From positions 18,104,001 to 18,168,000 of the forward strand of contig OZ024763.1 in NCBI GenBank assembly GCA_964016885.1: DNA of 64,000 bases, in the 5' to 3' direction. Made by a program: the position numbers and the translations under genes. Below the pieces are notes generated by a model, which had not been told where the DNA came from, did no database searches, and worked only from the letters and a program-made list of their open reading frames with translations. The DNA comes from Eledone cirrhosa. Its lineage: Eukaryota. Of the stretch, positions 11,690 through 64,000 are shown piece by piece (the first letter of the stretch is position 1; each line of letters opens with the position of its first letter).

Positions 11690-12700
11690 TTTACAGTGTG
11701 GACTGGGTGCTGTTTCTTGTGACACCTACACAACCACTTTACAGTGTGGACTGGGTGCTGTTTCTTGTGACACCTACACAACCACTTTACAGTGTGGACT
11801 GGGTGCTGTTTCTTGTGACACCTACACAACCACTTTACAGTGTGGACTGGGTGCTGTTTCTTGTGACACCTACACAACCACTTTATTGTGGACTGGGTGC
11901 TGTTTCTTGTGACACCTACACAACCACTTTACAGTGTGGACTGGGTGCTGTTTCTTGTGACACCTACACAACCACTTTACAGTGTGGACTGGGTGCTGTT
12001 TCTTGTGACACACACCTACACAACCACTTTACAGTGTGGACTGGGTGCTGTTTCTTGTGACACCTACACAACCACTTTACAGTGTGGACTGGGTGCTGTT
12101 TCTTGTGACACCTACACAACCACTTTACAGTGTGGACTGGGTGCTGTTTCTTGTGACACCTACACAACCACTACAGTGTGGACTGGGTGCTGTTTCTTGT
12201 GACACCTACACAACCACTTTACAGTGTGGACTGGGTGCTGTTTCTTGTGACACCTACACAACCACTTTACAGTGTGGACTGGGTGCTGTTTCTTGTGACA
12301 CCTACACAACCACTTTAGTGTGGACTGGGTGCTGTTTCTTGTGACACCTACACAACCACTTTACAGTGTGGACTGGGTGCTGTTTCTTGTGACACCTACA
12401 CAACCACTTTACAGTGTGGACTGGGTGCTGTTTCTTGTGACACAGACCTACACAACCACTTTACAGTGTGGACTGGGTGCTGTTTCTTGTGACACCTACA
12501 CAACCACTTTACAGTGTGGACTGAGTGCTGTTTGTTGTGACACACACCTACACAACCACTTTACAGTGTGGACTAGGTGCTTTTTGTCGTGACACCTACA
12601 CAACCACTTTACAGTGTGAACTGGGTGCTTTTTTTACCATGGCTCCGACACAACCACTTTACAGTGTGGACTGGGTCTTTTTGTCGTGACACCTACACGA
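11690..12700. repeat. 48-bp tandem repeat, about 21 copies, same family as 835-1512
   Basis: Unit TTTACAGTGTGGACTGGGTGCTGTTTCTTGTGACACCTACACAACCAC with array-specific substitutions. Confidence 0.95.
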
Positions 12701-12840
12701 CCTTATTTATTTAGGACTGGATGTTGTGGTACTAACATAACTTTACATTGAAAGGGGTGGTGTTGGTGGGTGTAGGGGTAGTGGGATGGGGGTGTGGTTT
12801 GGTTAGGAGGTGCCTACTGACTGTAGGTTTCACTTTGTAC

Positions 12841-15137: not shown

Positions 15138-15387
15138 TTTCTGAATTTGTTTAGCAAGATTCTTTATCTGAAAATGCGTGTTGAAACCGATATTGTTATA
15201 CTTTGGGAGGGTCATGTTGCCAATAAGAAACACACACCAGTTGCTTTCACTTCAATTTATTATAATAAATTAATAAATTTAGGAATTTATAAATTTATTA
15301 TAATAAATTGAAGTGAAAGCAACTGGTGTGTGTGTTTCTTATTGGCAACATGACCCTCCCAAAGTATAACAATATATATATATATAT

Positions 15388-16587: not shown

Positions 16588-17449
16588 TTAACCCCTTAGT
16601 ATTTAAACCGGCCATATCCGGCCAGAATTATCTCACCTCTTTCTGATCAAACTGGCTGTAATTGGTCACTCATACTGATGTTATGGTATTATTCTCAAGT
16701 AAAGCCTTTACAGTGAAAATACAGTAGTATTTTAGAGTAATGTAAATGCTAATGGGTTAATATGAGATCAGTTCTAGCAACCTTGGTCTTCCTCTACTGC
16801 AGCTTGCTTCCACCAGGATCTCTTACCACTTCTTCAGGTTCTGTTTAACCCTTTCATAACTGGCCAGAATTCTCTCACCCATTTCTGGCCAGACATTCCT
16901 TGGTCTTCCTCTACTGCAGCTTGCTTCTACCAGGATTTCTTGTCACTTCTTCAGGTTCTGTTTAACCCTTTCATAACTGGCCAGACATTCCTTGGTCTTC
17001 CTCTACTGCAGCTTGCTTCCACCAGGATCTCTTACCACTTCTTCAGGTTTTGTTTAACCCTTTCATAACTGGCCAGAATTCTCTCACCCATTTCTGGCCA
17101 GACATTCCTTGGTCTTCCTCTACTGCAGCTTGCTTCTACCAGGATTTCTTGTCACTTCTTCAGGTTCTGTTTAACCCTTTCATAACTGGCCAGACATTCC
17201 TTGGTCTTCCTCTACTGCAGCTTGCTTCCACCAGGGTCTCTTGCCACTTCTTCAGGTTCTGTTTAAATCAGCCATAATTGGCCAGAATTCTCTCACCTCT
17301 TTCTGTTTAAACCGGCTGGAACTGGTCACTCATACCAACGTTCTCAAAATAAATAATACCAAAATCTTAGATTCAATATTATGTGAAGTAAAGTGCTTAC
17401 CATGAAAATCTGACAGTATGTATAGAGTAATGTAAATGCTAAAGGGTTA
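16588..17449. mobile_element. piggyBac-like MITE fragments with tandemly duplicated RTE/MITE junction
   Basis: TTAACCC...GGGTTAA ends; repeated CCTTGGTCTTCCTCTACTGCAGCTTGCTTC blocks at 16770-17290. Confidence 0.55.
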
Positions 17450-19056: not shown

Positions 19057-19643
19057 TGTAGTGACCTACATTCCGCGGGCTCACATACATTCTCTGTGCG
19101 TGATTTGGCTCAGCTCAGCCAATCAGCACCAGTAGAAGAGGATGTATCCCTACGCGCCCTGAGGGAGAAATTCCCCGCGAAGATTTGAAGAATCTTCCTC
19201 TCGCACCCGGAACTTCGAACCAGCAACACGTACAACATGTGACGGTGAGATTTTGCACCTTAACCCGCCGGCTTTCCGGCGCAATGGCACATTCCCTTTT
19301 GTAACCTCATTTTATGTGTAACTTCAACCATACAAGTTAACCAACATTATTTGTGGATTGGCAGTATCGGTAGAGGGTCGGACGCCATGCTTTCCAGCAT
19401 AGTTACGTCCCTTTACGATCTGAGTTCAAATCCCGCCGAGGTTGACTTTGCCTTTCATCCTTACGGGGTCGATAAAATAAAGTACCAGTAATGCACTGGG
19501 TAATTGCTGGCCTTGTGCCTAAAGTAGAGACAATTATTTGTGCTACAACAAAAATAAACATACATTTCATCTCTAACTTCTGCTGTTGACATCATTATTG
19601 TGTTACTCGTGTCTCAATAACATTTATAATCCATGCTGCTAAA
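19057..19643 (+). mobile_element. Putative solo LTR
   Basis: Starts TGTAGTG, ends TGCTAAA (probably decayed TGCTACA), 4-bp TSD GATG splitting a SINE, CCAAT box, AATAAA near the 3' end, CpG-rich. Confidence 0.65.
19356..19532 (+). mobile_element. SINE family B nested in the solo LTR
   Basis: 10-bp TSD ATTATTTGTG on both sides. Confidence 0.85.
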
Positions 19644-20164
19644 GATGAAAGGCAAAGCTAACCTCGGCGGGATTTGAACTCGGTCCGTAAAGGGCCGTAA
19701 CTCTATGCTGAAAAGCATGGCGTCTGACCCTCTACCGATACTCTCAATCCACTGCCCTGTAATAATTGTTTCTACTTTGGGCACAAGGCCAGCAATTATC
19801 CCAGTGCATTACTGGTACGTTATTTTATCGGTCGGGCCCCGTAAGGATGAAAGGCAAAGCTAACCTCGGCGGGATTTGAACTCGGTCCGTAAAGGGCCGT
19901 AACTCTATGCTGAAAAGCATGGCGTCTGACCCTCTACCGATACTCTCAATCCACTGCCCTGTAATAATTGTTTCTACTTTGGGCACAAGGCCAGCAATTA
20001 TCCCAGTGCATTACTGGTACTTTATTTTATCGGTCGGGGCCCCGTAAGGATGAAAGGCAAAGCTAAACTCGGCGGGATTTGAACTCAGTCCGCAAAGGGC
20101 CGTAACTCTATGCCGCAAAGCATCGCGTCCGACCCTCTCTCCCGATAATGCTAATCCACCGCCC

Positions 20165-20345
20165 TGTAAGAATGTCCCACAGAAACACATCCTTCTTAGA
20201 CAGACAATATCCAACGCGGGAGGACTACCCAGATAGAGGTCTCCATTTGCGACTCTCTGTCGCCAAGATATGTTGGAAGAGTGTCCCAGCAGTCTTGTGT
20301 AACATCCATTTAGTCTTTTTTCAAGGGTTTTATTAAGCATTTATT
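20165..20345 (-). mobile_element. Non-LTR retrotransposon (RTE-like) ORF fragment
   Basis: TLEKRLNGCYTRLL...NISWRQRVANGDLY is typical of the post-RT region; related fragments at 21120-21355, 60860-61020 and 61735-61920 (RRLRLAGH). Confidence 0.7.
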
Positions 20346-25695: not shown

Positions 25696-27592
25696 TCATC
25701 ATCATCATCATCATCACCGTTTTATGTCCGTTATTCCGCGCTAGCATGGGTTAGATGGGTTGTCCTGTTGTGGGCAATGCCAGGTCAGGTGACCATGTCT
25801 TGCTCATACAGAACTGATTTTGGTTTAATTTCTACAGCTGGATGCTTTTCCTAACACCAACCTTATTTACAGTTGGCACTGGGTACTTTTTGTCATGACA
25901 CCTACATAACCATTTTACAGTATGGACTGGGTGCTCTTTGTCATGACACCTACACAACCACTTTACAGTTGGGACTGGATGCTTTTTGTCGTGACACCTA
26001 CATGATCACTTTACAGTGTGGACTGGGTGCTTTTTGTCATGACACCTACACAACCACTTTACAGTTGGGACTGGATGCTTTTTGTCGTGACACCTACATG
26101 ATCACTTTACAGTGTGGACTGGGTGCTTTTTGTCATGACACCTACACAACCACTTTACAGTTGGGACTGGATGCTTTTTGTCGTGACACCTACATGATCA
26201 CTTTACAGTGTGGACTGGGTGCTTTTTGTCATGACACCTACACAACCACTTTACAGTTGGGACTGGATGCTTTTTGTCATGACACTTACACAACCACTTT
26301 ACAGTATGGACTGGGTGCTTTTTGTCATGACACTTACACAACCACTTTACAGTATGGACTGGGTGCTTTTTGTCATGACACCTACACAACCACTTTACAG
26401 TATGGACTGGGTGCTTTTTGTCATGACACTTACACAACCACTTTACAGTATGGACTGGGTGCTCTTTGTCGTGACACCTACACAACCACTTTACAGTTGG
26501 GACTGGATGCTTTTTGTCGTGACACCTACATGATCACTTTACAGTGTGGATTGGGTGCTTTTTGTCGTGACACTTACACAACCACTTTACAGTGTGGACT
26601 GGATGTTTTTTGTCGTGACACCTACATGATCACTTTACAGTGTGGATTGGGTGCTTTTTGTCGTGACACCTACACAACCACTTTACAGTTGGGACTGGAT
26701 GCTTTTTGTCATGACACCTACATGATCACTTTACAGTTGGGACTGGATGCTTTTTGTCGTGACACCTACATGATCACTTTACAGTGTGGATTGGGTGCTT
26801 TTTGTCGTGATACCTACATGATCACTTTACAGTATGGACTGGGTGCTTTTTGTCATGACACCTACACAACCACTTTACAGTTGGGACTGGATGCTTTTTG
26901 TCGTGACACCTACATGATCACTTTACAGTGTGGACTGGGTGCTTTTTGTCGTGACACCTACACAACCACTTTACAGTGTGGACTGGATGTTTTTTGTCGT
27001 GACACCTACATGATCACTTTACAGTGTGGATTGGGTGCTTTTTGTCGTGACACCTACATGATCACTTTACAGTGTGGATTGGGTGCTTTTTGTCGTGACA
27101 CCTACACAACCACTTTACAGTTGGGACTGGATGCTTTTTGTCGTGACACCTACATGATCACTTTACAGTGTGGATTGGGTGCTTTTTGTCGTGATACCTA
27201 CATGATCACTTTACAGTATGGACTGGGTGCTTTTTGTCATGACACCTACACAACCACTTTACAGTTGGGACTGGATGCTTTTTGTCATGACACCTACATG
27301 ATCACTTTACAGTGTGGACTGGGTGCTTTTTGTCATGACACCTACACAACCACTTTACAGTGTGGACTGGATGTTTTTTGTCGTGACACCTACATGATCA
27401 CTTTACAGTGGGAGAAGGTGAGGGCATACTGTCTATACACTTCAGCTTCGGCTTGTACCCGTGGGAAGTAGGGTCTTCCGTATTACTGTGTAACGCCAGA
27501 GGTCTCGCTCCTGTGTCATCGCCTTTGAGAGGTGCAATTGGGCAAGGTCAGCTTTTATCACCTCATCCCAGGTCTTCTTGGGTCTCCCCACT
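25696..27592 (-). mobile_element. Composite retroelement: RTE C-terminus + about 32 x 48-bp VNTR + alternative RTE-type tail with (ATG)n
   Basis: Minus strand GRPKKTWDEVIKADLAQLHLSKAMTQERDLWRYTVIRKTLLPTGTSRS*, then the array (25866-27410), then AGGAAAAGCATCCAGCTGTAG...CTAACCCATGCTAGC...(GAT)n. Confidence 0.8.
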
Positions 27593-28161: not shown

Positions 28162-28529
28162 GTGAGTGAGAGTGGGACGCATGGTCCAAGTGAATGGGCT
28201 TGCTGGTGTTTGGAACATAACTTAACAAAGGTTCTTACATAAAATTATAATTGTTTCTACTTTTGGCACAAGGCCAGCAATTACTCCAATGCATTACTGG
28301 TACTTTATTTTATCGACCCTGTAAAGATGAAAGGCAAAGTTAAACCTCGGCGGGATTTGAACTCAGAACATAAAGGGCCATAACTCTATGCTGCAAAGCA
28401 TAGTGTCTTACATGAAATTATAATGAAAGGTTTTTAGATAAATATAAAGCTCTTTGAATTGATCAACTTTATAACATAAAACCAAAGGTGGTTTTGGGCA
28501 GTTTGATTTCAAAAGGTTAAAACAGTTTT

Positions 28530-29832
28530 AAATCATAGAACCAGGGGTGGTATCAGGTGGTTTGGTATGAAATGGGTGAAAACAGTTTTGTATCATAGAA
28601 CCAGAGGTGGTTTCACATGGTTTGGTATCATAGAACCAGAGGTGGCTTCACATGGTTTGGTATCATAGAACCAGAGGTGGTTTCACATGGTTTGGTATCA
28701 TAGAACCAGAGGTGGTTTCACATGCTTTGGTAACAAACAGTTTTGTATCATAGAACCAGAGGTGGTTTCACATGGTTTGGTATCATAGAACCAGAGGTGG
28801 TTTCACATGCTTTGGTAACAAACAGTTTTGTATCATAGAACCAGAGGTGGTTTCACATGCTTTGGTAACAAACAGTTTTGTATCATAGAACCAGAGGTGG
28901 TTTCACATGGTTTGGTATCATAGAACCAGAGGTGGTTTCACATGCTTTGGTAACAAACAGTTTTGTATCATAGAACCAGAAGTGGTTTCACATGGTTTGG
29001 TATCATAGAACCAGAGGTGGTTTCATATGGTTTGGTATCAAACAGTTTTATATCATAGAACCAGAGGTAGTTTCACATGGTTTGGTATCAAACAGTTTTA
29101 TATCATAGAACCAGAGGTAGTTTCACATGGTTTGGTATCAAACATTTTGATATCATAGAACCAGAGGTGGTTTCATATGGTTTGGTATCAACCATTTTGA
29201 TATCATAGAACCAGAGGTGGTTTCATATGGTTTGGTATCATAGAACCAGAGGTGGTTTCATATGGTTTGGTATCAACCATTTTGATATCATAGAACCAGA
29301 GGTGGTTTCATATGGTTTGGTATCATAGAACCAGAGGTGGTTTCATATGGTTTGGTATCAAACAGTTTTATATCATAGAACCACAGGTGGTTTCACATGG
29401 TTTGGTATCATAGAACCAGAGGTGGTTTCAGCAGTTTTGTATCATAGAACTAGGGGTGGTTTTATGCTGGTTTGATATATTAGAACCAGGGGTGGTTTCG
29501 GGAGTTTCGTATATTAGAACCAGGGGTGGTTTCGGGAGTTTGGTATCATAGAACTATGGGTGATTTTAGGTGGTTTGGTATATTAGAACCAGGGGTGGTT
29601 TCGGGAGTTTGGTATATTAGAACCAGGGGTGGTTTCGGGAGTTTGGTATATTAGAACCAGGGGTGGTTTCGGGAGTTTGGTATATTAGAACCAGGGGTGG
29701 TTTCGGGAGTTTGGTATATTAGAATCAGGGGTGGTTTCGGGAGTTTGGTATATTAGAACCAGGGGTGGTTTCGGGAGTTTGGTATCATAGAACTATGGGT
29801 GATTTTAGGTGGTTTGGTATCAAAAGGATTAA
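28530..29832. repeat. 35/50-bp minisatellite
   Basis: Unit TATCATAGAACCAGAGGTGGTTTCACATGGTTTGG and variants; the reverse complement matches the MITE subterminal sequence at 27815-27850. Confidence 0.9.
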
Positions 29833-37492: not shown

Positions 37493-37790
37493 TCATCATC
37501 ATCATCATCATCATCACCGTTTTACGTCCGTTCTTCCATGCTAGCATGGGTTAGACGGGTTGTCCTGTTGTGGGCAGTGTCTGGTTGGCTGACCATGCCT
37601 TGCTCATACAGGAACTGATTTGGCTTGATTTCTACAGCTGGATGCCCTTCCTAACACCAACCTCATTTACAGTGAGTGCTGGGTGCTTTTTTGCCGTGGC
37701 GCCTACACGACCACTTTACAGTGTGGGCTGGGTGCTTTTTTGCCGTGTCACCTCCACGACCACCTTGCGGTGGGGGGTGTGGGGGCATTA
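37489..37790 (-). mobile_element. Low-copy version (2 x 48-bp unit) of the composite VNTR element
   Basis: Same tail as 25696-25866, two 48-bp units, then the G-rich GGGGCAT junction also seen at 1512-1533. Confidence 0.7.
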
Positions 37791-38294: not shown

Positions 38295-38588
38295 TCATCA
38301 TCATCATTTTACGTCCGCTTTTCCCTGCTTGCAAGGGTGGGACGGGAATTGATCTACAGCTGGATGCCCTTCCTAACACCAACCTCATTTACAGTGAGTG
38401 CTGGGTGCTTTTTTTTCCGTGGCGCCTCCACAACCACTTTACAGTGGAATGATAGGGACCCGAGTCCCTATCACCTCATTTCTACAGCTGAGTAAACTGG
38501 AGCAATGTGAAATAAAGTCTCTTGCTCAAGGAAACAACACATCACCCGGTCTGAGAATAGAACTCACAACCTTTCGATTGCAAGGCCA
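38295..38588 (-). mobile_element. SINE family A
   Basis: Reverse complement of the 15388 element. Confidence 0.9.
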
Positions 38589-38699: not shown

Positions 38700-39540
38700 A
38701 ATAATTGTTTCTACTATTGGCACTAGGCCAGCAATTATCCAGTACATTACTGGTACTTTATTTTGTTTCTACTTTAGGCACAAGGCCAGCAATTACCCAG
38801 TACATTACTGGTACTTTATTTTGTTTCTACTTTAGGCACAAGGCCAGCAAATACCCAGTGCATTATTGGTACTTTATTTTGTCGACCCCCGTAAGGATGA
38901 AAGGCAAAGTTAACCTCGGCGGGATTTGACTCAGACTGTAAAGGGCCGTAACTCTATGCTTCAAAGCATGGCATCCGACCCTCTACCGATACTGCCAATC
39001 CACCGCCTTTATATATAATAGTAATAATAATAAAAAGGACAAAGTGTTAGATCTTCATTACATTTATTGAGGTGTGATGAGCATGTTGCTATTGATCAGC
39101 TCAAGGTTCGATCTGTATTGATTTGGTCTGACTCTGGAATCAAAGGCTCATCAGACTTCTCTTACGGTAATGACAGGTAAATGCAGGTAATATCTTGGAA
39201 TGATTTAGCAGAAAATATCTTTAAAAACATTTAATAATGGTTTCTACGTTAGGCACAAGGCCAGCAAAATACCCAGTGTATTACTGGTACTTTATTTTAT
39301 CGACCCCGTAAGGATGAAAAGCAAAGTTAACCTCGGCGGGATTTGAACTCAGAATGGCAAGGGCCGTAACTCTATGCGCCAAAGCATGGCATCCGACACT
39401 CTACCAATATTGCCAATCCACCGCCTATTAAAAACATTTAATAATGGTTTCTTTCATAGGCACAAGGATAGCAATTTTGTGGCCATAACTCTATGCTGCA
39501 AAGCATGGTGTCTGACCCTCTACTGATACTGCCAATCCAC
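38700..39540 (-). mobile_element. SINE family B cluster with triplicated tail
   Basis: Family B sequence; the about 60-bp tail is repeated three times at 38703-38880. Confidence 0.8.
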
Positions 39541-42729: not shown

Positions 42730-43228
42730 ATTACCCCTTTAATTACCATATTTCTAATTAACTCTCCCATTACCATATTTCTAATGAAAGACACTGCCTA
42801 TGTCTTTAACCCTTTCATTACCATATTTCTAATGAAAGACACTGTCTATGTCTTTAACCCTTTCATTACCATATTTCTAATGAAAGACACTGTCTATGTC
42901 TTTAACCCTTTCATTACCATATTTCTAATGAAAGACACTGTCTATGTCTTTAACCCTTTCATTACCATATTTCTAATGAAAGACCCTGTCTATGTCTTTA
43001 ACCCTTTCATTACCACATTTCTAATGAAAGACACTGTCTATGTCATTAACCCTTTCATTACCATATATCTAATGAAAGACACTATCTCATTAACCCTTTC
43101 ATTACCATATTTCTAATGAAAGACACTGTCTATGTTTTTAACCCTTTCATTACCATATTTCTAATGAAAGACACTGTCTATGTCTTTAACCCTTTCATTA
43201 CCATATTTCTAATGAAAGACACTGCTCC
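42730..43228. repeat. 48-bp tandem repeat, about 10 copies, built on a TTAACCCTTT MITE-like terminus
   Basis: Unit TTAACCCTTTCATTACCATATTTCTAATGAAAGACACTGTCTATGTCT; unrelated to the other 48-bp family. Confidence 0.9.
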
Positions 43229-46454: not shown

Positions 46455-49400
46455 TGACCGTAAGTCCAACACCCTTACCACTAGGCCACACACTGTCACA
46501 CACCATACAACCCAGTCCAGGTATCAAACCTATGACATTATGACTGTAAGTCCAACACCCTTACCACTAGGCCACACACTGTCACACACCATACAACCCA
46601 GTCCAGGTATCAAACCTATGACATTATGACTGTAAGTCCAACACCCTTACCACTAGGCCACACACTGTCACACACCATACAACCCAGTCCAGGTATCAAA
46701 CCTATGACATTATGACTGTAAGTGCAACACCCTTACCACTAGGCCACACACTGTCACACACCATACGACCCAGTCCAGGTATCAAACCTATGACATTATG
46801 ACTGTAAGTCCAACACCCTTACCACTAGGCCACACACTGTCACACACCATACAACCCAGTCCAGGTATCAAACCTATGACATTATGACTGTAAGTCCAAC
46901 ACCCTTACCACTAGGCCACACACTGTCACACACCATACAACCCAGTCCAGGTATCAAACCTATGACATTATGACTGTAAGTCCAACACCCTTACCACTAG
47001 GCAACACACTGTCACACACCATACAACCCAGTCCAGGTATCACACCTATGACATTATGACTGTAAGTCCAACACCCTTACCACTAGGCCACACACTATCA
47101 CACACCATACAACCCAGTCCAGGTATCAAACCTATGACATTATGACTGTAAGTCCAACGACTTTACCACTAGGCCACACACTGTCACACACCATACAACC
47201 CAGTCCAGGTATCAAACCTATGACATTATGACTGTAAGTCCAACACCCTTACCACTAGGCCACACACTGTCACACACCATACAACCCAGTCCAGGTATCA
47301 AACCTATGACATTATGACTGTAAGTCCAACACCCTTACCACTAGGCCACACACTGTCACACACCATACAACCCAGTCCAGGTATCAAACCTATGACATTA
47401 TGACTGTAAGTCCAACACCCTTACCACTAGGCCACACACTGTCACACACCATACAACCCAGTCCAGGTATCAAACCTATGACATTATGACTGTAAGTCCA
47501 ACGACTTTACCGTTAGGCCACACACTGTCACACACCATACAACCCAGTCCAGGTATCAAACCTATGACATTATGACTGTAAGTCCAACACCCTTACCACT
47601 AGGCCACACACTGTCACACACCATACAACCCAGTCCAGGTATCAAACCTATGACATTATGACTGTAAGTCCAACACCCTTACCACTAGGCCACACACTGT
47701 CACACACCATACAACCCAGTCCAGGTATCAAACCTATGACATTATGACTGTAAGTCCAACACCCTTACCACTAGGCCACACACTATCACATACCATACAA
47801 CCCAGTCCAGGTATCAAACCTATGACATTATGACTGTAAGTCCAACGACTTTACCACTAGGCCACACACTGTCACACACCATACAACCCAGTCCAGGTAT
47901 CAAACCTATGACATTATGACTGTAAGTCCAACACCCTTACCACTAGGCCACACACTGTCACACACCATACAACCCAGTCCAGGTATCAAACCTATGACAT
48001 TATGACTGTAAGTCCAACGACTTTACCACTAGGCCACACACTGTCACACACCATACAACCCAGTCCAGGTATCAAACCTATGACATTATGACTGTAAGTC
48101 CAACACCCTTACCACTAGGCCACACACTGTCACACACCATACAACCCAGTCCAGGTATCAAACCTATGACATTATGACTGTAAGTCCAACACCCTTACCA
48201 CTAGGCCACACACTGTCACACACCATACAACCCAGTCCAGGTATCAAACCTATGACATTATGACTGTAAGTCCAACGACTTTACCACTAGGCCACACACT
48301 GTCACACACCATACAACCCAGTTCAGGTATCAAACCTATGACATTATGACTGTAAGTCCAACGACTTTACCACTAGGCCACACACTGTCACACACCATAC
48401 AACCCAGTCCAGGTATCAAACCTATGACATTATGACTGTAAGTCCAACACCCTTACCACTAGGCCATACACTGTCACACACCATACAACCCAGTCCAGGT
48501 ATCAAACCTATGACATTATGACTGTAAGTCCAACGACTTTACCACTAGGCCACACACTGTCACACACCATACAACCCAGTCCAGGTATCAAACCTATGAC
48601 ATTATGACTGTAAGTCCAACGACTTTACCACTAGGCCACACACTGTCACACACCATACAACCCAGTCCAGGTATCAAACCTATGACATTATGACTGTAAG
48701 TCCAACACCCTTACCACTAGGCCACACACTGTCACACACCATACAACCCAGTCCAGGTATCAAACCTATGACATTATGACTGTAAGTCCAACACCCTTAC
48801 CACTAGGCCACACACTGTCACACACCATACAACCCAGTCCAGGTATCAAACCTATGACATTATGACTGTAAGTCCAACACCCTTACCACTAGGCCACACA
48901 CTGTCACACACCATACAACCCAGTCCAGGTATCAAACCTATGACATTATGACTGTAAGTCCAACGACTTTACCGTTAGGCCACACACTGTCACACACCAT
49001 ACAACCCAGTCCAGGTATCAAACCTATGACATTATGACTGTAAGTCCAACACCCTTACCACTAGGCCACACACTGTCACACACCATACAACCCAGTCCAG
49101 GTATCAAACCTATGACATTATGACTGTAAGTCCAACACCCTTACCACTAGGCCACACACTGTCACACACCATACAACCCAGTCCAGGTATCAAACCTATG
49201 ACATTATGACTGTAAGTCCAACACCCTTACCACTAGGCCACACACTATCACACACCATACAACCCAGTCCAGGTATCAAACCTATGACATTATGACTGTA
49301 AGTCCAACGACTTTACCACTAGGCCACACACTGTCACACACCATACAACCCAGTCCAGGTATCAAACCTATGACATTATGACTGTAAGTCCAACACCCTT

Positions 49401-52400
49401 ACCACTAGGCCACACACTGTCACACACCATACAACCCAGTCCAGGTATCAAACCTATGACATTATGACTGTAAGTCCAACGACTTTACCACTAGGCCACA
49501 CACTGTCACACACCATACAACCCAGTCCAGGTATCAAACCTATGACATTATGACTGTAAGTCCAACACCCTTACCACTAGGCCACACACTGTCACACACC
49601 ATACAACCCAGTCCAGGTATCAAACCTATGACATTATGACTGTAAGTCCAACACCCTTACCACTAGGCCACACACTGTCACACACCATACAACCCAGTCC
49701 AGGTATCAAACCTATGACATTATGACTGTAAGTCCAACGACTTTACCACTAGGCCACACACTGTCACACACCATACAACCCAGTTCAGGTATCAAACCTA
49801 TGACATTATGACTGTAAGTCCAACGACTTTACCACTAGGCCACACACTGTCACACACCATACAACCCAGTCCAGGTATCAAACCTATGACATTATGACTG
49901 TAAGTCCAACACCCTTACCACTAGGCCATACACTGTCACACACCATACAACCCAGTCCAGGTATCAAACCTATGACATTATGACTGTAAGTCCAACGACT
50001 TTACCACTAGGCCACACACTGTCACACACCATACAACCCAGTCCAGGTATCAAACCTATGACATTATGACTGTAAGTCCAACGACTTTACCACTAGGCCA
50101 CACACTGTCACACACCATACAACCCAGTCCAGGTATCAAACCCACGACATTATGACCGTAAGTCCAACACCCTTACTCCTAGGCCACACACTGTCACACA
50201 CCATACAACCCAGTCCAGGTATCAAACCTATGACATTATGACTGTAAGTCCAACACCCTTACCACTAGGCCACACACTGTCACACACCATACAACCCAGT
50301 CCAGGTATCAAACCTATGACATTATGACTGTAAGTCCAACGACTTTACCACTAGGCCACACACTGCCACACACCATACAACCCAGTCCAGGTATCAAACC
50401 TATGACATTATGACTGTAAGTCCAACACCCTTACCACTAGGCCACACACTGTCACACACCATACAACCCAGTCCAGGTATCAAACCTATGACATTATGAC
50501 TGTAAGTCCAACACCCTTACCACTAGGCCACACACTGTCACACACCATACAACCCAGTCCAGGTATCAAACCTATGACATTATGACTGTAAGTCCAACAC
50601 CCTTACCACTAGGCCACACACTATCACACACCATACAACCCAGTCCAGGTATCAAACCTATGACATTATGACTGTAAGTCCAACGACTTTACCACTAGGC
50701 CACACACTGTCACACACCATACAACCCAGTCCAGGTATCAAACCTATGACATTATGACTGTAAGTCCAACACCCTTACCACTAGGCCACACACTGTCACA
50801 CACCATACAACCCAGTCCAGGTATCAAACCTATGACATTATGACTGTAAGTCCAACGACTTTACCACTAGGCCACACACTGTCACACACCATACAACCCA
50901 GTCCAGGTATCAAACCTATGACATTATGACTGTAAGTCCAACACCCTTACCACTAGGCCACACACTGTCACACACCATACAACCCAGTCCAGGTATCAAA
51001 CCTATGACATTATGACTGTAAGTCCAACACCCTTACCACTAGGCCACACACTGTCACACACCATACAACCCAGTCCAGGTATCAAACCTATGACATTATG
51101 ACTGTAAGTCCAACGACTTTACCACTAGGCCACACACTGTCACACACCATACAACCCAGTTCAGGTATCAAACCTATGACATTATGACTGTAAGTCCAAC
51201 GACTTTACCACTAGGCCACACACTGTCACACACCATACAACCCAGTCCAGGTATCAAACCTATGACATTATGACTGTAAGTCCAACACCCTTACCACTAG
51301 GCCATACACTGTCACACACCATACAACCCAGTCCAGGTATCAAACCTATGACATTATGACTGTAAGTCCAACGACTTTACCACTAGGCCACACACTGTCA
51401 CACACCATACAACCCAGTCCAGGTATCAAACCTATGACATTATGACTGTAAGTCCAACGACTTTACCACTAGGCCACACACTGTCACACACCATACAACC
51501 CAGTCCAGGTATCAAACCCACGACATTATGACCGTAAGTCCAACACCCTTACTCCTAGGCCACACACTGTCACACACCATACAACCCAGTCCAGGTATCA
51601 AACCAATGACATTATGACTGTAAGTCCAACACCCTTACCACTAGGCCACACACTGTCACACACCATACAACCCAGTCCAGGTATCAAACCTATGACATTA
51701 TGACTGTAAGTCCAACGACTTTACCACTAGGCCACACACTGCCACACACCATACAACCCAGTCCAGGTATCAAACCTATGACATTATGACTGTAAGTCCA
51801 ACACCCTTACCACTAGGCCACACACTGTCACACACCATACAACCCAGTCCAGGTATCAAACCTATGACATTATGACTGTAAGTCCAACGACTTTACCACT
51901 AGGCCACACACTGTCACACACCATACAACCCAGTCCAGGTATCAAACGTATGACATTATGACTGTAAGTCCAACACCCTTACCCCTAGGCCACACACTGT
52001 CACACACCATACAACCCAGTCCAGGTATCAAACCTATGACATTATGACTGTAAGTCCAACACCCTTACCACTAGGCCACACACTGTCACACACCATACAA
52101 CCCAGTCCAGGTATCAAACCTATGACATTATGACTGTAAGTCCAACACCCTTACCACTAGGCCACACACTGTCACACACCATACAACCCAGTCCAGGTAT
52201 CAAACCTATGACATTATGACTGTAAGTCCAACACCCTTACCACTAGGCCACACACTGTCACACACCATACAACCCAGTCCAGGTATCAAACCTATGACAT
52301 TATGACTGTAAGTCCAACACCCTTACCGCTAGGCCACACACTGTCACACACCATACAACCCAGTCCAGGTATCAAACCTATGACATTATGACTGTAAGTC

Positions 52401-55400
52401 CAACACCCTTACCACTAGGCCACACACTGTCACACACCATACAACCCAGTCCAGGTATCAAACCTATGACATTATGACTGTAAGTCCAACGACTTTACCA
52501 CTAGGCCACACACTGTCACACACCATACAACCCAGTCCAGGTATCAAACCTATGACATTATGACTGTAAGTCCAACGACTTTACCACTAGTCCACACACT
52601 GTCACACACCATACAACCCAGTCCAGGTATCAAACCTATGACATTATGACTGTAAGTCCAACACCCTTACCACTCGGCCACACACTGTCACACACCATAC
52701 AACCCAGTCCAGGTATCAAACCTATGACATTATGACTGTAAGTCCAACGACTTTACCACTAGGCCACACACTGTCACACACCATACAACCCAGTCCAGGT
52801 ATCAAACCTATGACATTATGACTGTAAGTCCAACACCCTTACCACTAGGCCACACACTGTCACACACCATACAACCCAGTCCAGGTATCAAACCTATGAC
52901 ATTATGACTGTAAGTCCAACGACTTTACCACTAGGCCACACACTGTCACACACCATACAACCCAGTCCAGGTATCAAACCTATGACATTATGACTGTAAG
53001 TCCAACACCCTTACCCCTAGGCCACACACTGTCACACACCATACAACCCAGTTCAGGTATCAAACCTATGACATTATGACTGTAAGTCCAACACCCTTAC
53101 CACTAGGCCACACACTGTCACACACCATACAACCCAGTCCAGGTATCAAACCTATGACATTATGACTGTAAGTCCAACACCCTTACCACTAGGCCACACA
53201 CTGTCACACACCAAACAACCCAGTCCAGGTATCAAACCTATGACATTATGACTGTAAGTCCAACACCCTTACCACTAGGCCACACACTGTCACACACCAT
53301 ACAACCCAGTCCAGGTATCAAACCTATGACATTATGACTGTAAGTCCAACACCCTTACCCCTAGGCCACACACTGTCACACACCATACAACCCAGTCCAG
53401 GTATCAAACCTATGACATTATGACTGTAAGTCCAACACCCTTACCCCTAGGCCACACACTGTCACACACCATACAACCCAGTCCAGGTATCAAACCTATG
53501 ACATTATGACTGTAAGTCCAACACCCTTACCACTAGGCCACACACTGTCATACACCATACAACCCAGTCCAGGTATCAAACCTATGACATTATGACTGTA
53601 AGTCCAACGACTTTACCACTAGTCCACACACTGTCACACACCATACAACCAAGTCCAGGTATCAAACCTATGACATTATGACTGTAAGTCCAACACCCTT
53701 ACCACTAGGCCACACACTGTCACACACCATACAACCCAGTCCAGGTATCAAACCTATGACATTATGACTGTAAGTCCAACGACTTTACCACTAGGCCACA
53801 CACTGTCACACACCATACAACCCAGTCCAGGTATCAAACCTATGACATTATGACTGTAAGTCCAACACCCTTACCACTAGGCCACACACTGTCACACACC
53901 ATACAACCCAGTCCAGGTATCAAACCTATGACATTATGACTGTAAGTCCAACGACTTTACCACTAGGCCACACAATGTCACACACCATACAACCCAGTCC
54001 AGGTATCAAACGTATGACATTATGACTGTAAGTCCAACACCCTTACCCCTAGGCCACACACTGTCACACACCATACAACCCAGTCCAGGTATCAAACCTA
54101 TGACATTATGACTGTAAGTCCAACACCCTTACCACTAGGCCACACACTGTCACACACCATACAACCCAGTCCAGGTATCAAACCTATGACATTATGACTG
54201 TAAGTCCAACACCCTTACCACTAGGCCACACACTGTCACACACCATACAACCCAGTCCAGGTATCAAACCTATGACATTATGACTGTAAGTCCAACACCC
54301 TTACCACTAGGCCACACACTGTCACACACCATACAACCCAGTCCAGGTATCAAACCTATGACATTATGACTGTAAGTCCAACACCCTTACCACTAGGCCA
54401 CACACTGTCACACACCATACAACCCAGTCCAGGTATCAAACCTATGACATTATGACTGTAAGTCCAACGACTTTACCACTAGGCCACACACTGCCACACA
54501 CCATACAACCCAGTCCAGGTATCAAACCTATGACATTATGACTGTAAGTCCAACACCCTTACCACTAGGCCACACACTGTCACACACCATACAACCCAGT
54601 CCAGGTATCAAACCTATGACATTATGACTGTAAGTCCAACGACTTTACCACTAGGCCACACACTGTCACACACCATACAACCCAGTCCAGGTATCAAACG
54701 TATGACATTATGACTGTAAGTCCAACACCCTTACCCCTAGGCCACACACTGTCACACACCATACAACCCAGTCCAGGTATCAAACCTATGACATTATGAC
54801 TGTAAGTCCAACACCCTTACCACTAGGCCACACACTGTCACACACCATACAACCCAGTCCAGGTATCAAACCTATGACATTATGACTGTAAGTCCAACAC
54901 CCTTACCACTAGGCCACACACTGTCACACACCATACAACCCAGTCCAGGTATCAAACCTATGACATTATGACTGTAAGTCCAACACCCTTACCACTAGGC
55001 CACACACTGTCACACACCATACAACCCAGTCCAGGTATCAAACCTATGACATTATGACTGTAAGTCCAACACCCTTACCGCTAGGCCACACACTGTCACA
55101 CACCATACAACCCAGTCCAGGTATCAAACCTATGACATTATGACTGTAAGTCCAACACCCTTACCACTAGGCCACACACTGTCACACACCATACAACCCA
55201 GTCCAGGTATCAAACCTATGACATTATGACTGTAAGTCCAACGACTTTACCACTAGGCCACACACTGTCACACACCATACAACCCAGTCCAGGTATCAAA
55301 CCTATGACATTATGACTGTAAGTCCAACGACTTTACCACTAGTCCACACACTGTCACACACCATACAACCCAGTCCAGGTATCAAACCTATGACATTATG

Positions 55401-58400
55401 ACTGTAAGTCCAACACCCTTACCACTCGGCCACACACTGTCACACACCATACAACCCAGTCCAGGTATCAAACCTATGACATTATGACTGTAAGTCCAAC
55501 GACTTTACCACTAGGCCACACACTGTCACACACCATACAACCCAGTCCAGGTATCAAACCTATGACATTATGACTGTAAGTCCAACACCCTTACCACTAG
55601 GCCACACACTGTCACACACCATACAACCCAGTCCAGGTATCAAACCTATGACATTATGACTGTAAGTCCAACGACTTTACCACTAGGCCACACACTGTCA
55701 CACACCATACAACCCAGTCCAGGTATCAAACCTATGACATTATGACTGTAAGTCCAACACCCTTACCCCTAGGCCACACACTGTCACACACCATACAACC
55801 CAGTTCAGGTATCAAACCTATGACATTATGACTGTAAGTCCAACACCCTTACCACTAGGCCACACACTGTCACACACCATACAACCCAGTCCAGGTATCA
55901 AACCTATGACATTATGACTGTAAGTCCAACACCCTTACCACTAGGCCACACACTGTCACACACCAAACAACCCAGTCCAGGTATCAAACCTATGACATTA
56001 TGACTGTAAGTCCAACACCCTTACCACTAGGCCACACACTGTCACACACCATACAACCCAGTCCAGGTATCAAACCTATGACATTATGACTGTAAGTCCA
56101 ACACCCTTACCCCTAGGCCACACACTGTCACACACCATACAACCCAGTCCAGGTATCAAACCTATGACATTATGACTGTAAGTCCAACACCCTTACCCCT
56201 AGGCCACACACTGTCACACACCATACAACCCAGTCCAGGTATCAAACCTATGACATTATGACTGTAAGTCCAACACCCTTACCACTAGGCCACACACTGT
56301 CATACACCATACAACCCAGTCCAGGTATCAAACCTATGACATTATGACTGTAAGTCCAACGACTTTACCACTAGTCCACACACTGTCACACACCATACAA
56401 CCAAGTCCAGGTATCAAACCTATGACATTATGACTGTAAGTCCAACACCCTTACCACTAGGCCACACACTGTCACACACCATACAACCCAGTCCAGGTAT
56501 CAAACCTATGACATTATGACTGTAAGTCCAACGACTTTACCACTAGGCCACACACTGTCACACACCATACAACCCAGTCCAGGTATCAAACCTATGACAT
56601 TATGACTGTAAGTCCAACACCCTTACCACTAGGCCACACACTGTCACACACCATACAACCCAGTCCAGGTATCAAACCTATGACATTATGACTGTAAGTC
56701 CAACGACTTTACCACTAGGCCACACAATGTCACACACCATACAACCCAGTCCAGGTATCAAACGTATGACATTATGACTGTAAGTCCAACACCCTTACCC
56801 CTAGGCCACACACTGTCACACACCATACAACCCAGTCCAGGTATCAAACCTATGACATTATGACTGTAAGTCCAACACCCTTACCACTAGGCCACACACT
56901 GTCACACACCATACAACCCAGTCCAGGTATCAAACCTATGACATTATGACTGTAAGTCCAACACCCTTACCACTAGGCCACACACTGTCACACACCATAC
57001 AACCCAGTCCAGGTATCAAACCTATGACATTATGACTGTAAGTCCAACACCCTTACCACTAGGCCACACACTGTCACACACCATACAACCCAGTCCAGGT
57101 ATCAAACCTATGACATTATGACTGTAAGTCCAACACCCTTACCACTAGGCCACACACTGTCACACACCATACAACCCAGTCCAGGTATCAAACCTATGAC
57201 ATTATGACTGTAAGTCCAACACCCTTACCACTAGGCCACACACTGTCACACACCATACAACCCAGTCCAGGTATCAAACCTATGACATTATGACTGTAAG
57301 TCCAACACCCTTACCACTAGGCCACACACTGTCACACACCATACAACCCAGTCCAGGTATCAAACCTATGACATTATGACTGTAAGTCCAACACCCTTAC
57401 CACTAGGCCACACACTGTCACACACCATACAACCCAGTCCAGGTATCAAACCTATGACATTATGACTGTAAGTCCAACACCCTTACCACTAGGCCACACA
57501 CTGTCACACACCATACAACCCAGTCCAGGTATCAAACCTATGACATTATGACTGTAAGTCCAACACCCTTACCACTAGGCCACACACTGTCACACACCAT
57601 ACAACCCAGACCAGGTATCAAACCTATGACATTATGACTGTAAGTCCAACGACTTTACCACTAGGCCACACACTGTCACTCACCATACAACCCAGTCCAG
57701 GTATCAAACCTATGACATTATGGCTGTAAGTCCAACGACTTTACCACTAGGCCACACACTGTCACACACCATACAACCCAGTCCAGGTATCAAACCTATG
57801 ACATTATGACTGTAAGTCCAACACCCTTACCACTAGGCCACACACTGTCACACACCATACAACCCAGTCCAGGTATCAAACCTATGACATTATGACTGTA
57901 AGTCCAACGACTTTACCACTAGGCCACACACTGTCACACACCATACAACCCAGTCCAGGTATCAAACCTATGACATTATGGCTGTAAGTCCAACACCCTT
58001 ACCACTAGGCCACACACTGTCACACACCATACAACCCAGTCCAGGTATCAAACCTATGACATTATGACTGTAAGTCCAACACCCTTACCCCTAGGCCACA
58101 CACTGTCACACACCATACAACCCAGTCCAGGTATCAAACCTATGACATTATGACTGTAAGTCCAACACCCTTACCACTAGGCCACACACTGTCACACACC
58201 ATACAACCCAGTCCAGGTATCAAACCTATGACATTATGACTGTAAGTCCAACGACTTTACCACTAGGCCACACACTGTCACACACCATACAACCCAGTCC
58301 AGGTATCAAACCTATGACATTATGACTGTAAGTCCAACGACTTTACCACTAGGCCACACACTGTCACACACCATACAACCCAGTCCAGGTATCAAACCTA

Positions 58401-58872
58401 TGACATTATGACTGTAAGTCCAACGACTTTTCCACTAGGCCACACACTGTCACACACCATACAACCCAGTCCAGGTATCAAACCTATGACATTATGACTG
58501 TAAGTCCAACGACTTTACCACTAGGCCACACACTGTCACACACCATACAACCCAGTCCAGGTATCAAACCTATGACATTATGACTGTAAGTCCAACGACT
58601 TTACCACTAGGCCACACACTGTCACACACCATACAACCCAGTCCAGGTATCAAACCTATGACATTATGACTGTAAGTCCAACGACTTTACCACTAGGCCA
58701 CACACTGTCACACACCATACAACCCAGTCCAGGTATCAAATCTATGACATGATGACTGTAAGTCCAACGACTTTACCACTAGGCCACACACTGTCACACA
58801 CCATACAACCCAGTCCAGGTATCAAACCTATGACATTATGACCGTAAGTCCAACGACTTTACCACTAGGCCA
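46455..58872 (-). repeat. 86-bp satellite, about 144 copies, derived from a tRNA-SINE head
   Basis: Plus-strand unit GACTGTAAGTCCAACACCCTTACCACTAGGCCACACACTGTCACACACCATACAACCCAGTCCAGGTATCAAACCTATGACATTAT; minus strand carries TGGCCTAGTGG and GGTTTGATACC. Confidence 0.95.
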
Positions 58873-59010
58873 GTGTGGACTGGAGCAACATGAAATAAAG
58901 TGTCTTGCTCAAGAACACAACACAACACAACACACAACCCAATCCAGGAATCAAACCCACGACATTATGATTGTAAGTCCAACATCCTTACCACGAGGCC
59001 ATACACCTCC
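58873..59010 (-). mobile_element. tRNA/CORE-type SINE 5' half, probable progenitor of the 86-bp satellite
   Basis: Minus strand GGAGGTGTATGGCCTCGTGGTAAGGATGTTGGACTTACAATCATAATGTCGTGGGTTTGATTCCTGG...CTTGAGCAAGACACTTTATTTC. Confidence 0.85.
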
Positions 59011-59114
59011 ATCATAATCATTGCTGTCCCTCATTCTATGAAATCCTTTTTAATTTTTTTTTTTTTTTCCCCTCTAGGTTAGTCACACATCTTTTTTTTT
59101 TTTTTTTTTGAATC

Positions 59115-59280
59115 ATGACTTCCAAACATCCGTCAACCCCGATAACACAACAGCCAAGGAGTACATCCAAGTTATCTCTTTCCTCTAAACTTATGTCCAG
59201 TCATCAAATGGACCATGAGATCTGTGAAAAAGCTTGGACATCTGGTCTCTGTGACTGTCAAGATGATGAAAAACACAATT
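59115..59280 (+). CDS. PLAC8/cornifelin-family protein, first coding exon
   Basis: MTSKHPSTPITQQP...AWTSGLCDCQDDEKHN(C); acceptor (T)nCCCCTCTAG at 59077, in-frame TGA just upstream of the ATG, GTAAGT donor in phase 1. Confidence 0.88.
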
Positions 59281-59624
59281 GTAAGTATTTATGATAACAA
59301 CTAAAATGTTTGTGTTCAGGAAACAACAAACAGGTACAAAAAGTCTTGTTAGTTTCACGGTTTATATGGAAAAGGGAAAAGAAAGTTTGACATGTCGGGC
59401 TTTAGCCCTTCTTCAGGAGTACAAAATAGAGACAGGATGACAAAGTATAGTTACAGAAAATAAAGGGTTGTCAAAGTAAAGTAAAAAAAAAATAAATAAA
59501 TAAAAAGTAAAAAAATTCAAACCATTAGGTAGTCTTGGTAACAATATTGGAACGCAAAGTGAAGTGTGTGTGTGTATTAGTGTTGATATTGTGTAAGTGT
59601 ATACATTATATATATATTCAAGGT

Positions 59625-60040
59625 ACAGGTAGTGGGTTCTAAGCCCACTTCTGTTCATCATAGATCTCCAGGCCATAACAGAGGGGTTTAAGACTGACTG
59701 TCCATGGGAACCTCTCTTGGCAGATGGTTGAATTTGGTCCTTACAGCTGAATCCATAAAAGAACTAGAAAATAAGTTCCAACTCGGGAAACAGAATTTGG
59801 AATCAAAGGGTCAGAGATTAAACTTAGCCAAAACTAAAGTGCTAGTGTGTAGGAAAGAAGAAAGAACCCTGATCCCTTCAGAAAAGTGGCCCTGCTCTAT
59901 ATGTAGAAAGGGAGTAGGTATAAATTCCATACTGTATACACAATGTAAATCTTAAGGTACACAGGAGACGTAGTGGGATAACAGGTAGACTAACAGGAAG
60001 GGAAGACTTTGTATGTAGAAGATACACAGGGGTAACCGAG
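59625..60040 (+). mobile_element. Degenerate RTE LINE RT-region fragment (intronic)
   Basis: LVLTAESIKELENKFQL..NLESKG.RLNLAKTKVL...KWPCSICRKGVGINSI. Confidence 0.8.
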
Positions 60041-62914: not shown

Positions 62915-63051
62915 GTCTGTCCTCTCTGTGTTGTTGGCCATTCTTTAAATATACGTTGGCTATGCGTGTCGGTGAATCTCCATTTGTCCCTCTCATCCCC
63001 TGTGCTATGTTTGCTCTACGTGTAAAACTAAGGACGGTCCTGAGTATAAAG
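62915..63051 (+). CDS. PLAC8/cornifelin-family protein, second coding exon; gene continues beyond the window
   Basis: (C)LSSLCCWPFFKYTLAMRVGESPFVPLIPCAMFALRVKLRTVLSIK; pyrimidine-rich CCAG acceptor, AAG|GTAAGT donor, phase compatible with the previous exon (T|GT = Cys). Confidence 0.88.
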
Positions 63052-63520: not shown

Positions 63521-64000
63521 TTTAACCCTTTAGCATTCACATTACTCTATATATACTATTGTATTTTCATGGTAAATGCTTTACCTCACATAATATCTCA
63601 CATAACATTCACATTACTCTATATATACTATTATATTTTCAGGGTAAAGGCTTTACCTCACATAATATCTCACATAACATTCACATTACTCTATATATAC
63701 TATTGTATTTTCATAGTAAATGCTTTACCTCACATAATATCTCACATAACATTTACATTACTCTATATATACTATTGTATTTTCATGGTAAATGCTTTAC
63801 CTCACATAATATCTCGCATAACATTCACATTACTCTATATATACTATTGTATTTTCATGGTAAATGCTTTACCTCACATAATATCTCGCATAACATTCAC
63901 ATTACTCTATATATACTATTGTATTTTCATGGTAAAGGCTTTACCTCACATAATATCTCGCATAACATTCACATTACTCTATATATACTATTGTATTTTC
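63521..64000. repeat. 72-bp tandem repeat starting at a TTAACCCTTTAGCATT MITE-like terminus
   Basis: ATTACTCTAT recurs at 63541, 63613 and 63685; similar to the reverse complement of 17380-17449. Confidence 0.9.

Follow-up and report, generated by a model that had tools for sequence, protein, structure and literature searches.

A probable SINE-derived satellite of 86-bp units upstream of a cornifelin gene in the octopod Eledone cirrhosa

The window, a stretch of 64,000 nucleotides of the Eledone cirrhosa genome (GCA_964016885.1, contig OZ024763.1, positions 18,104,001 to 18,168,000; positions below count from its first letter), contains a cornifelin homolog of the PLAC8 family on the plus strand, of which the first coding exon (59115..59280, followed by a donor GT at 59281) and the second (62915..63051) were recognised by homology. 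The two exons are 80-84% and 87-91% identical, respectively, to those of five octopod cornifelin homologs that carry PF04749, and 11 of the 13 exon differences listed fall at codon position 3 (p = 2e-4); the host gene qualifies as a member of the cornifelin/PLAC8 group. Scanned one by one, the exons matched no Pfam family, and tblastn with P0006, which is 19 residues longer, found no upstream cornifelin exon. A polypyrimidine tract ending in CTAG (59047..59077, plus strand) resembles a splice acceptor and, judging by its letters, may be used as one. It lies 65 nt from the 5′ end of a truncated tRNA-type SINE that abuts a tandem array. The array is antisense to the cornifelin gene, just upstream of its first coding exon, and by position it is likely to sit in the cornifelin 5′UTR intron.

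The array (46455..58872, minus strand) was delimited by TRF (period 86, 144.4 copies, 97% matches) and by a script that counted 144 full units from 58872 downward and then a 34-nt partial unit (46455..46488, minus strand), where the array is cut mid-unit. An earlier note on this DNA had described an array of about 144 units and 12.4 kb, a SINE head running directly into it, and a minus strand lacking a T4 terminator. All three observations are borne out: the counts agree, 58873-59012 passes straight into unit 1, and no T4 run occurs on the minus strand across 46455-59012, the first one downstream of the array being at 45912. Each unit corresponds to nucleotides ~1-86 of the SINE, that is, to the tRNA-derived head with its A box and a B box carrying the change C56T. 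The spacing between units is 86 in all 144 cases, and that from the head to the first unit is 129. The units lie at a mean distance of 1.8% from their consensus and 2.8% from each other, with 30 distinct units among the 144 and two main variants, A (n = 93) and B (n = 51). At the far end of the array neither a SINE tail nor a target-site duplication was seen, and the sequence beyond it matches no repeat in the window.

Block duplications are evident in the array. An exact duplication of 32 units (51649..57152, minus strand) makes 54401-57152 identical to 51649-54400 (0 differences in 2752 bp), and identity at a lag of 2752 is exact over 2863 bp; the longest run of identical unit types is 32, against a maximum of 9 among 200 shuffles. 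Further block repeats of 16, 17 and 33 units (48638-51562, minus strand) are imperfect. The exactness of the 2.75-kb duplication, together with the fact that no contig of the compared sequencing runs spans the stretch, would suit an assembly artefact that lengthened a shorter true array, an explanation that we consider quite improbable in view of the other block repeats, whose imperfections are those expected of genuine duplications, and of the spacings, which are all 86. The array length of 144 units and the exact 32-unit duplication have the assembly as their sole source.

The three changes that define variant B are fully linked (51/51/51) and convert AGGGT to AAGTC, which exactly complements, in reverse, a GACTT four bases downstream; since the linked triple change is complementary to this downstream arm, variant B is likely to have arisen by one short-range template-switch mutation. 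G30, likely the ancestral base, is found in the terminal partial unit, in unit 1 and in the internal units 86 and 102, the last two of which also have the head-like G42 and G44. The units adjoining the head are of variant B and are the least head-like, with 11-13 differences compared with 9 for the bulk. The array is the relic of a duplication that happened long ago, and more recent duplications of blocks are likely to have made its units uniform again. DNA-hairpin-driven slippage was considered as the amplifier and rejected for the present units, which have DNA-parameter z scores of +0.6/+0.1 (variant A) and -0.6/-0.8 (variant B) in a comparison of 10 sequences on both strands.

The truncated SINE at 58873-59012 consists of a head and ~50 nt of body. 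The diverged, tRNA-derived leading head (58925..59012, minus strand) ends 3′ in a TGTTG expansion of 10 nt; the body segment (58871..58924, minus strand) is a conserved central stretch common to at least eight dispersed copies in the window, and at the junction the TG at 58872-58871 is common to the SINE continuation and unit 1. The alignment of unit and head that was reported earlier holds, with 68 of 77 positions identical to the unit consensus (BLAST E 7e-25). Over 63 nt, head and unit agree at 56 positions, compared with 39-45 for six dispersed copies in the window, and 10 changes common to head and unit are absent from all six; a common origin of head and unit is therefore well supported by sequence comparison. 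The remaining divergence of 11% comprises 3 head-only and 4 unit-only changes. Of the earlier claim that a SINE-to-satellite transition had been caught in place, the origin from the adjoining head is supported, given the 56 matches and the 10 shared changes; "caught in place" is too strong, as both branches have diverged and the units next to the head resemble it least. Because SINE body lies between the head and the array and not at the far end, a single event would not suffice. None of the six dispersed copies is of the same subfamily as the head, and contigs of run X6 show a third subfamily; what head and unit have in common may thus in part mark a subfamily, and a different locus could have supplied the seed of the array.

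The position of the SINE body, the variant B units next to the head with their 11-13 differences, agreement at only 6 of the first ten 5′ bases of unit and head, and a G30-type 86-bp unit in run X5 would also be expected if the unit had been born elsewhere and a piece of satellite had been copied into the SINE by homology-directed repair, the head being a landing pad and not the progenitor. This order of events is improbable, as it sits poorly with the 10 changes absent from the dispersed copies, with a divergence that is symmetric as after one duplication, and with the presence of G30 at both array ends and, accompanied by G42/G44, in two internal units. A hairpin-templated junction between head and array was dropped as unneeded, since 447 contigs of run X6 give a SINE subfamily that reads through the same letters into its tail.

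We consider it rather probable that a decayed SINE head, antisense in the probable cornifelin 5′UTR intron, was duplicated in place and amplified to 144 units, and that the result is functionless. The starting point is the SINE at 58873-59012, whose family is present in very high copy in octopods. Loss of the B-box C56 would predate amplification, since the T is found in the head and in all units. A switch from SINE nt ~142 to nt ~12 at the shared TG would have made a second head, and a second switch, involving the TG-rich stretches at both ends of the head, would have fixed the 86-bp unit. The blocks of 16, 17, 32 and 33 units suggest that duplications of this kind expanded and homogenised the array while older states stayed at its edges; at the far end, the array breaks off within a unit and no SINE tail is left. 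Amplification is likely to have proceeded by microhomology-guided template switching and then by unequal exchange.

A working role had been proposed for the units as Pol III promoters, either giving multimeric transcripts that are processed to tRNA-like RNAs or forming a TFIIIC boundary platform beside the cornifelin gene. The A box conforms to the consensus, the minus strand runs without T4 for 12.5 kb, pairing with G-U counted is 4/4 in the D arm and 4/5 in the T arm, and tRNA-like tandems such as newt PolIII/TAN are transcribable in vitro according to the available part of PMC10702118. The B box speaks against such a role: the T at C56 remarked on in the earlier note is present in the head and in 144/144 units, GGTTTGATACC occurs in 138 of the 144 units and GTTCGA in none, and the consensus GTTCRANNC has no match on either strand of 46455-59012; it is kept in five of the eight SINE copies examined. 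Nor are the boxes spared by mutation, for the A box is changed in 24 of the 144 units and 10 of 33 variant alleles fall within the 22 box positions (p = 0.55), without sign of constraint. The GACT-TAC-AGTC hairpin that had been placed at the anticodon position does exist, with a 4-bp stem and a 3-nt loop, but it is not a tRNA anticodon arm; when the unit is aligned in proper tRNA register, 3 of the 5 anticodon-stem pairs form and the acceptor stem has a gap. Scored as tRNA with Rfam RF00005, the array reached 17.7 bits against a cut-off of 29, in nine hits (E 3.7) that do not include the head, and ARAGORN called no tRNA gene. The predicted fold of the unit is a rod and not a cloverleaf. In cloverleaf score, ARAGORN call and B box the array falls short of a functional tRNA cluster, and with no GTTCRANNC, no box constraint and a sub-threshold score, neither Pol III multimers with tRNA-like products nor a TFIIIC platform is supported; either would be very surprising. 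From its sequence, the array is likely to be an ordinary neutral satellite and not a working tRNA-like gene cluster. Against a complete lack of function, 144 weak sites could add up, and C56T itself, as distinct from C56G, is not assayed in the literature consulted.

tRNA-derived heads such as that of BC1 are able to refold as rods. The unit spans exactly the rod-hairpin domain of four dispersed heads, of which two have the same sequence (z -4.2 to -8.6), a rod hairpin is predicted for variant A (z -2.8, compared with -0.8 for the leading head), and three units are predicted to form one nested duplex of -97.7 kcal/mol (z -4.8, a score inflated by repetition). By our own reading of the fold, the unit-only A44 and A53 would improve pairing and G31 and A42 would weaken it. 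The unit could be imagined as a self-contained rod-hairpin RNA module unchanged in distant octopods, the array then being a source not of tDNA function but of long nested double-stranded RNA, antisense to the 5′ intron of cornifelin, whose editing or dicing would tune the gene; we regard this model as far-fetched. A function as RNA in general, whether as a nested minus-strand duplex that is a substrate of ADAR or Dicer or through an effect of array length on splicing or expression, might gain from the 65-nt distance to the acceptor-like site and from an exact unit in a run of another organism (X5), yet it is highly unlikely in that the minus strand has no promoter, the plus (pre-mRNA) strand is predicted to be unstructured (z +2.8), the fold of variant B (51 of 144 units) does not surpass that of shuffled sequences (z -1.2), and the apical stem of the rod has decayed. 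The available parts of PMC10498592 and PMC5135761 contain no precedent for the rod fold.

Nine related SINE copies were found in the window, the dispersed ones being 230-350 nt long. The family has a very high copy number in octopods: 23,864 contigs of run X1 match a 1.6-kb stretch, and summed depth peaks over the SINE body. Three further arrays of 48-bp units in the window (x14, x21 and x32) are 76-83% identical to nt ~179-244 of the SINE copy at 33060. Their sequences indicate that a related SINE contributed its tail to them, and conversion of SINEs to tandem repeats therefore appears routine in the window. Tandems of 202 bp and 72 bp also match dispersed repeats. In an Rfam scan of 1-46700, the matches were dominated by microsatellites matching miRNA models (150 of 390 matches listed).

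Of the 17 sequencing runs listed, 14 contain part of the stretch and two contain half or more, with no RNA run listed among them; contigs were compared for four, and runs X7-X14 (share 0.04) and the RAD runs X15-X17 were left out. Joints at which the sequence "goes back" were found for the SINE body in runs X1, X4, X5 and X6 and for the head in X6 (weakly, at a likeness threshold of 82%), and hint faintly at other SINE tandems in those genomes. In run X4, the word share is 0.26 compared with ~0.20 expected from exon plus background, and summed depth is 170 in the unit bin (dispersed SINEs included) compared with 51 for the exon, which is small beside 144 units; this depth was not interpreted because contigs cannot reveal small or stranded RNA, and a joint of depth 96 there more likely represents a dispersed SINE than the array. 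Summed contig depth was rejected as a measure of copy number, as organism C yields a similar ratio from dispersed SINEs. One contig of run X5, from a distant organism, agrees with unit 1 at every one of 68 nt and is of the G30 type with an 86-bp period; the exon there is only 84% alike. Contamination is the likely source, and the match, if real, would not be neutral drift. Exact patterns had no match in metagenome contigs.

The head-to-tail array is likely to be a satellite derived from a SINE, a class for which reptiles provide published examples. In the available part of Vassetzky et al. 2023 (PMC10702118), the squamate sSat1-3 have tandem units that at 70-290 nt do not reach the length of their parent tRNA-SINE and that form multiple loci with a subtelomeric tendency and up to 320, ~950 and >1200 monomers, the long loci being highly homogeneous. 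The array shares with them at least four head-to-tail middle monomers (here 144), a unit that is shorter than the dispersed SINE of the genome to which it is homologous (39-44 of 63 positions agree with the six dispersed heads), one longer terminal unit leading into the parent SINE, homogeneity (2.8% pairwise) and locus-specific subvariants (A 93, B 51); head-derived variants (sSat3Ppi2, sSat3Gja2) are also described there. As far as that account goes, the array differs in its cephalopod host, in its position at the 5′ end of a gene, in that the unit of so long an array takes in the complete head and both boxes (head-only units are rare in long gecko loci), and in that the extension of the leading unit faces the array, contrary to the usual layout. 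The amphibian tandems PolIII/TAN (Hirt), OAX, Rana/polIII and Hy/polIII also repeat a tRNA-related segment, in units of 200-360 nt or longer with no parent SINE shown in the part available (PMC10702118); unlike PolIII/TAN, transcribed in vitro, the present array has lost an intact B box and lies beside a clear parent SINE.

Among molluscs, tandem HCD-SINE arrays of 2-15 units in the bivalve Scapharca broughtonii, as presented in the available part of Martelossi et al. 2024 (PMC11481361), are likewise often intronic and likewise begin with a SINE whose head is full and whose 3′ part is truncated, the repeats after it being truncated too; their last unit has a complete tail and target-site duplication, whereas here there are 144 units and neither was seen. 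The parent resembles the tRNA-derived SINEs of octopuses (the three families of Ohshima and Okada 1994, with OR1 a CORE-SINE, in the available part of PMC4824008), compared by description only: it has a head with A and B boxes, a shared central body, very many copies and an octopod host. The adjoining copy lacks a tail and target-site duplication, which is truncation of this copy, and the SINE family claim stands. Our literature search found no SINE-to-satellite conversion in cephalopods, and the locus adds a clean case with a readable history: promoter decay before amplification, microhomology junctions, a template-switch variant, ancestral states kept at the edges, and nested block duplications. 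Its importance would be much greater only if the unit in run X5 were genuine or the minus-strand double-stranded RNA were made. The array might also serve as a length-polymorphic marker beside a conserved gene.

The 86-bp tandem array lies on the minus strand at 46455-58872 (TRF: period 86, 144.4 copies, 97% matches) and, when cut in register, yields 144 complete units plus a partial one of 34 nt, the spacing being 86 between all units and 129 from the head to the first unit. The units differ on average by 1.8% from their consensus and by 2.8% pairwise; 30 are distinct, 61 have the consensus sequence itself, and the array contains 70 CpG versus 518 expected. The adjoining leading element, a truncated tRNA-type SINE at 58873-59012, shares 68 of 77 positions with the unit, and no T4 occurs on the minus strand between 59012 and 46455. 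The earlier note, which described 144 units without T4 and an adjoining head that matches them, was accurate in this respect. The array is a real, well-resolved SINE-derived satellite, and quite probably a neutral one.

Head and body of the leading element are about 70-72% alike to dispersed copies at 15386, 22089, 31170, 31541, 33060 and 61398; at 38545 and 44679 only the SINE body is present, and near 549 there is a decayed copy. In sequencing run X1, from the source species, 23,864 contigs fell on a 1.6-kb test stretch, with a summed depth of 1.4 million at the SINE-body peak versus 7 in the unique exon, a figure that marks the SINE as a very abundant repeat and is not a copy number. In run X6 (organism C), 447 contigs with loose ends at 58871 represent a subfamily whose body runs through the array-junction letters into a tail segment that is that of the 15386 and 33060 copies. 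Because this subfamily continues past the junction, the leading element corresponds to SINE nucleotides 1 to roughly 142; it is cut at a TG with which unit 1, the unit adjoining the head, also begins.

The proposed SINE-to-satellite origin is supported, in that the head aligns with the unit: they agree at 56 of 63 ungapped positions (39-45 for six dispersed copies) and have ten positions in common that are absent in all six dispersed copies. Since those six represent other subfamilies, part of this agreement may reflect subfamily membership. The transition is probably not a recent one, however. Three positions are peculiar to the head and four to the unit, a symmetric split implying that the head-unit duplication is probably old (about 11% apart) and homogenisation much younger. 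The SINE body separates the head from the array, whose far end breaks off mid-unit without a tail; the 46 nt beyond that end match nothing else in the window. Since one in-place duplication would put the SINE body at the far end, at least two steps are inferred: the first would be a 129-nt jump back, and the second would fix the 86-nt unit between TG-rich stretches at both ends of the head. The array edges appear to preserve older sequence states: G30 is kept in unit 1 and in the last partial unit, and G30/G42/G44 are found in units 86 and 102. The eight units nearest the head are of variant B and are those that differ from it most (11-13 versus 9 differences).

SINE-derived satellites (sSats) of squamate reptiles, in the accessible part of PMC10702118, resemble the Eledone array in having one longer terminal unit and locus-specific subvariants; an sSat array can run to more than 1200 monomers, and some variants derive from the SINE head. 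Bivalve arrays, often intronic, open with a full-head, 3′-truncated SINE like the Eledone leading element (PMC11481361, in part). No cephalopod case of a SINE-derived satellite was among the papers listed in literature searches, and neither "satellite" nor "tandem" appears in the accessible text of PMC13652810.

The 32 units at 54401-57152 are identical to 51649-54400 (exact over 2863 bp), and further unit-type repeats have lags of 16, 17 and 33. In 200 shuffles of unit order no such run exceeded 9 units, versus 32 in the array. These block repeats have the pattern that unequal exchange or long slippage would leave; an assembly error is another possible source of the perfect 32-unit block. Hairpin-driven slippage was rejected as a present driver of amplification because the units form no hairpin under DNA parameters. 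Variant B (51 of 144 units; variant A, 93) carries three changes that lie within four bases and always occur together; they turn AGGGT into the reverse complement of GACTT four bases further on. Template switching between imperfect inverted repeats leaves a mutation signature (PMC8604942 and PMC5453318, accessible parts), and variant B is suggestive, though only suggestive, of such short-range switching; the chance of three given changes all pairing is about 1 in 27.

The earlier note also envisaged a Pol III/TFIIIC function. The B-box consensus GTTCRANNC is absent from both strands of 46455-59012 and retained in five of eight dispersed heads; T in place of B-box C56 predates amplification, since the head and all 144 units carry it. 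The loose-end consensuses of dispersed copies include T56 as well as C56 forms, which is what a CpG hotspot should produce. The boxes are not spared: 33 variant alleles fall 7 in the A box, 3 in the B box and 23 in the other 64 positions (p=0.55), and the A box is altered in 24 of 144 units. The Rfam tRNA model gave nine matches on 57000-60000 at 17.7 bits, below the cut-off of 29, and none on the head; ARAGORN found no tRNA gene in the window. Judged by these sequence features, a Pol III/TFIIIC role of the array is unlikely. The GACT-TAC-AGTC hairpin placed at the anticodon position is present but is not an anticodon arm, having a 4-bp stem and a 3-nt loop and pairing would-be anticodon-loop bases. 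Read in tRNA register, the unit pairs at 3 of 5 positions in the anticodon stem, 4 of 5 in the T stem and 4 of 4 in the D stem, where two of the variant A pairs are G-U.

Four dispersed heads, two of them identical, are predicted to fold into a single rod of about 80 nt, not a cloverleaf (z -4.2 to -8.6). The predicted rod is retained in unit A (z -2.8), and the unit ends fall at its base; predicted folds of unit B (z -1.2) and of the head (z -0.8) are no better than shuffles. Three units on the minus strand are predicted to form a nested long duplex (z -4.8, inflated by repetition), and the plus strand is predicted to be unstructured (z +2.8). Of the tRNA-derived heads at 15386, 22089, 31170 and 33060, which cover both dispersed subfamilies and share the predicted rod, several have a GNRA-type loop. 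The host lineage has high RNA editing; dispersed SINE heads are possible ADAR substrates.

The cornifelin context of the array is new in this analysis. Two plus-strand coding exons of a cornifelin (PLAC8-family) homolog lie at 59115-59280 (ATG 59115, donor GT 59281) and 62915-63051. Compared with the cornifelin homologs (PF04749) from three Octopus species and Argonauta hians, the first exon has 80-84% and the second 87-91% identity, matches that identify the host as an octopod; a third exon lies beyond the window. Between organism C and the first exon, 11 of the 13 differences listed affect the third base of a codon (p=2e-4). In run X4, a contig of depth 51 is identical to 59119-59282 and continues with 252 other letters. 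The match runs two bases beyond the donor because the second exon begins with GT, so that X4 probably represents spliced RNA. A T18 run lies directly 5′ of the ATG. An acceptor-like polypyrimidine tract with CTAG at its end (59077) lies between SINE and ATG, 65 nt from the SINE 5′ end and 37 nt upstream of the ATG, so the array is likely antisense within a cornifelin 5′UTR intron; tblastn found no cornifelin exon upstream of 59115.

In run X5 (organism B), a 116-nt contig of depth 5.65 aligns with unit 1 over 68 bases (58787-58854) without a mismatch, G30 included, while the X5 contig of the exon (depth 3.7) differs at 25 of 156 positions. At word length 31, a closed 86-bp cycle would come out at 116 nt (86+30); the contig appears to be such a cycle, and the X5 word share of 0.12 fits the whole unit (0.086) plus background. 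Contamination is very probably the explanation, although G30 is rare in the Eledone array (3 of 144 units) and X5 gives no cover of a repeat at 59327-59434 that abounds in X1; the isolated low-depth cycle points to traces of DNA from a species whose array is large and of the G30 type. There is a small opening for a unit truly conserved in a more distant organism.

Weak signs of back-jumping were seen as 37-45 nt joints in the SINE body in all four runs compared and as a 64-nt joint in the head in X6 (58994 to 58931; depth 142, one contig). From the latter joint, organism C appears to have a separate tandem of about 69 bp, made of a related SINE head. Arrays of 48 bp occur at 826-1514 (14 copies), 11690-12702 (21), 25866-27410 (32) and 37666-37763 (2); the first three match the tail portion of the 33060 SINE copy at 76-83%, the arrays being independent expansions, at several loci, of one 15386/33060-type tail segment. 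Further tandems are at 16781-17305 (92/117/209 bp), 19640-20173 (202 bp), 28515-29820 (35/50/85 bp), 38705-38882 (58 bp), 42768-43224 (48 bp) and 63534-64000 (72 bp), and the 202-, 72- and 92-bp units are also dispersed as single copies in the window. Near-perfect inverted repeats at 10121-10204 (centred on a TA run) and 15207-15359, seen in Rfam alignments, are likely small MITE-like or template-switch palindromes.
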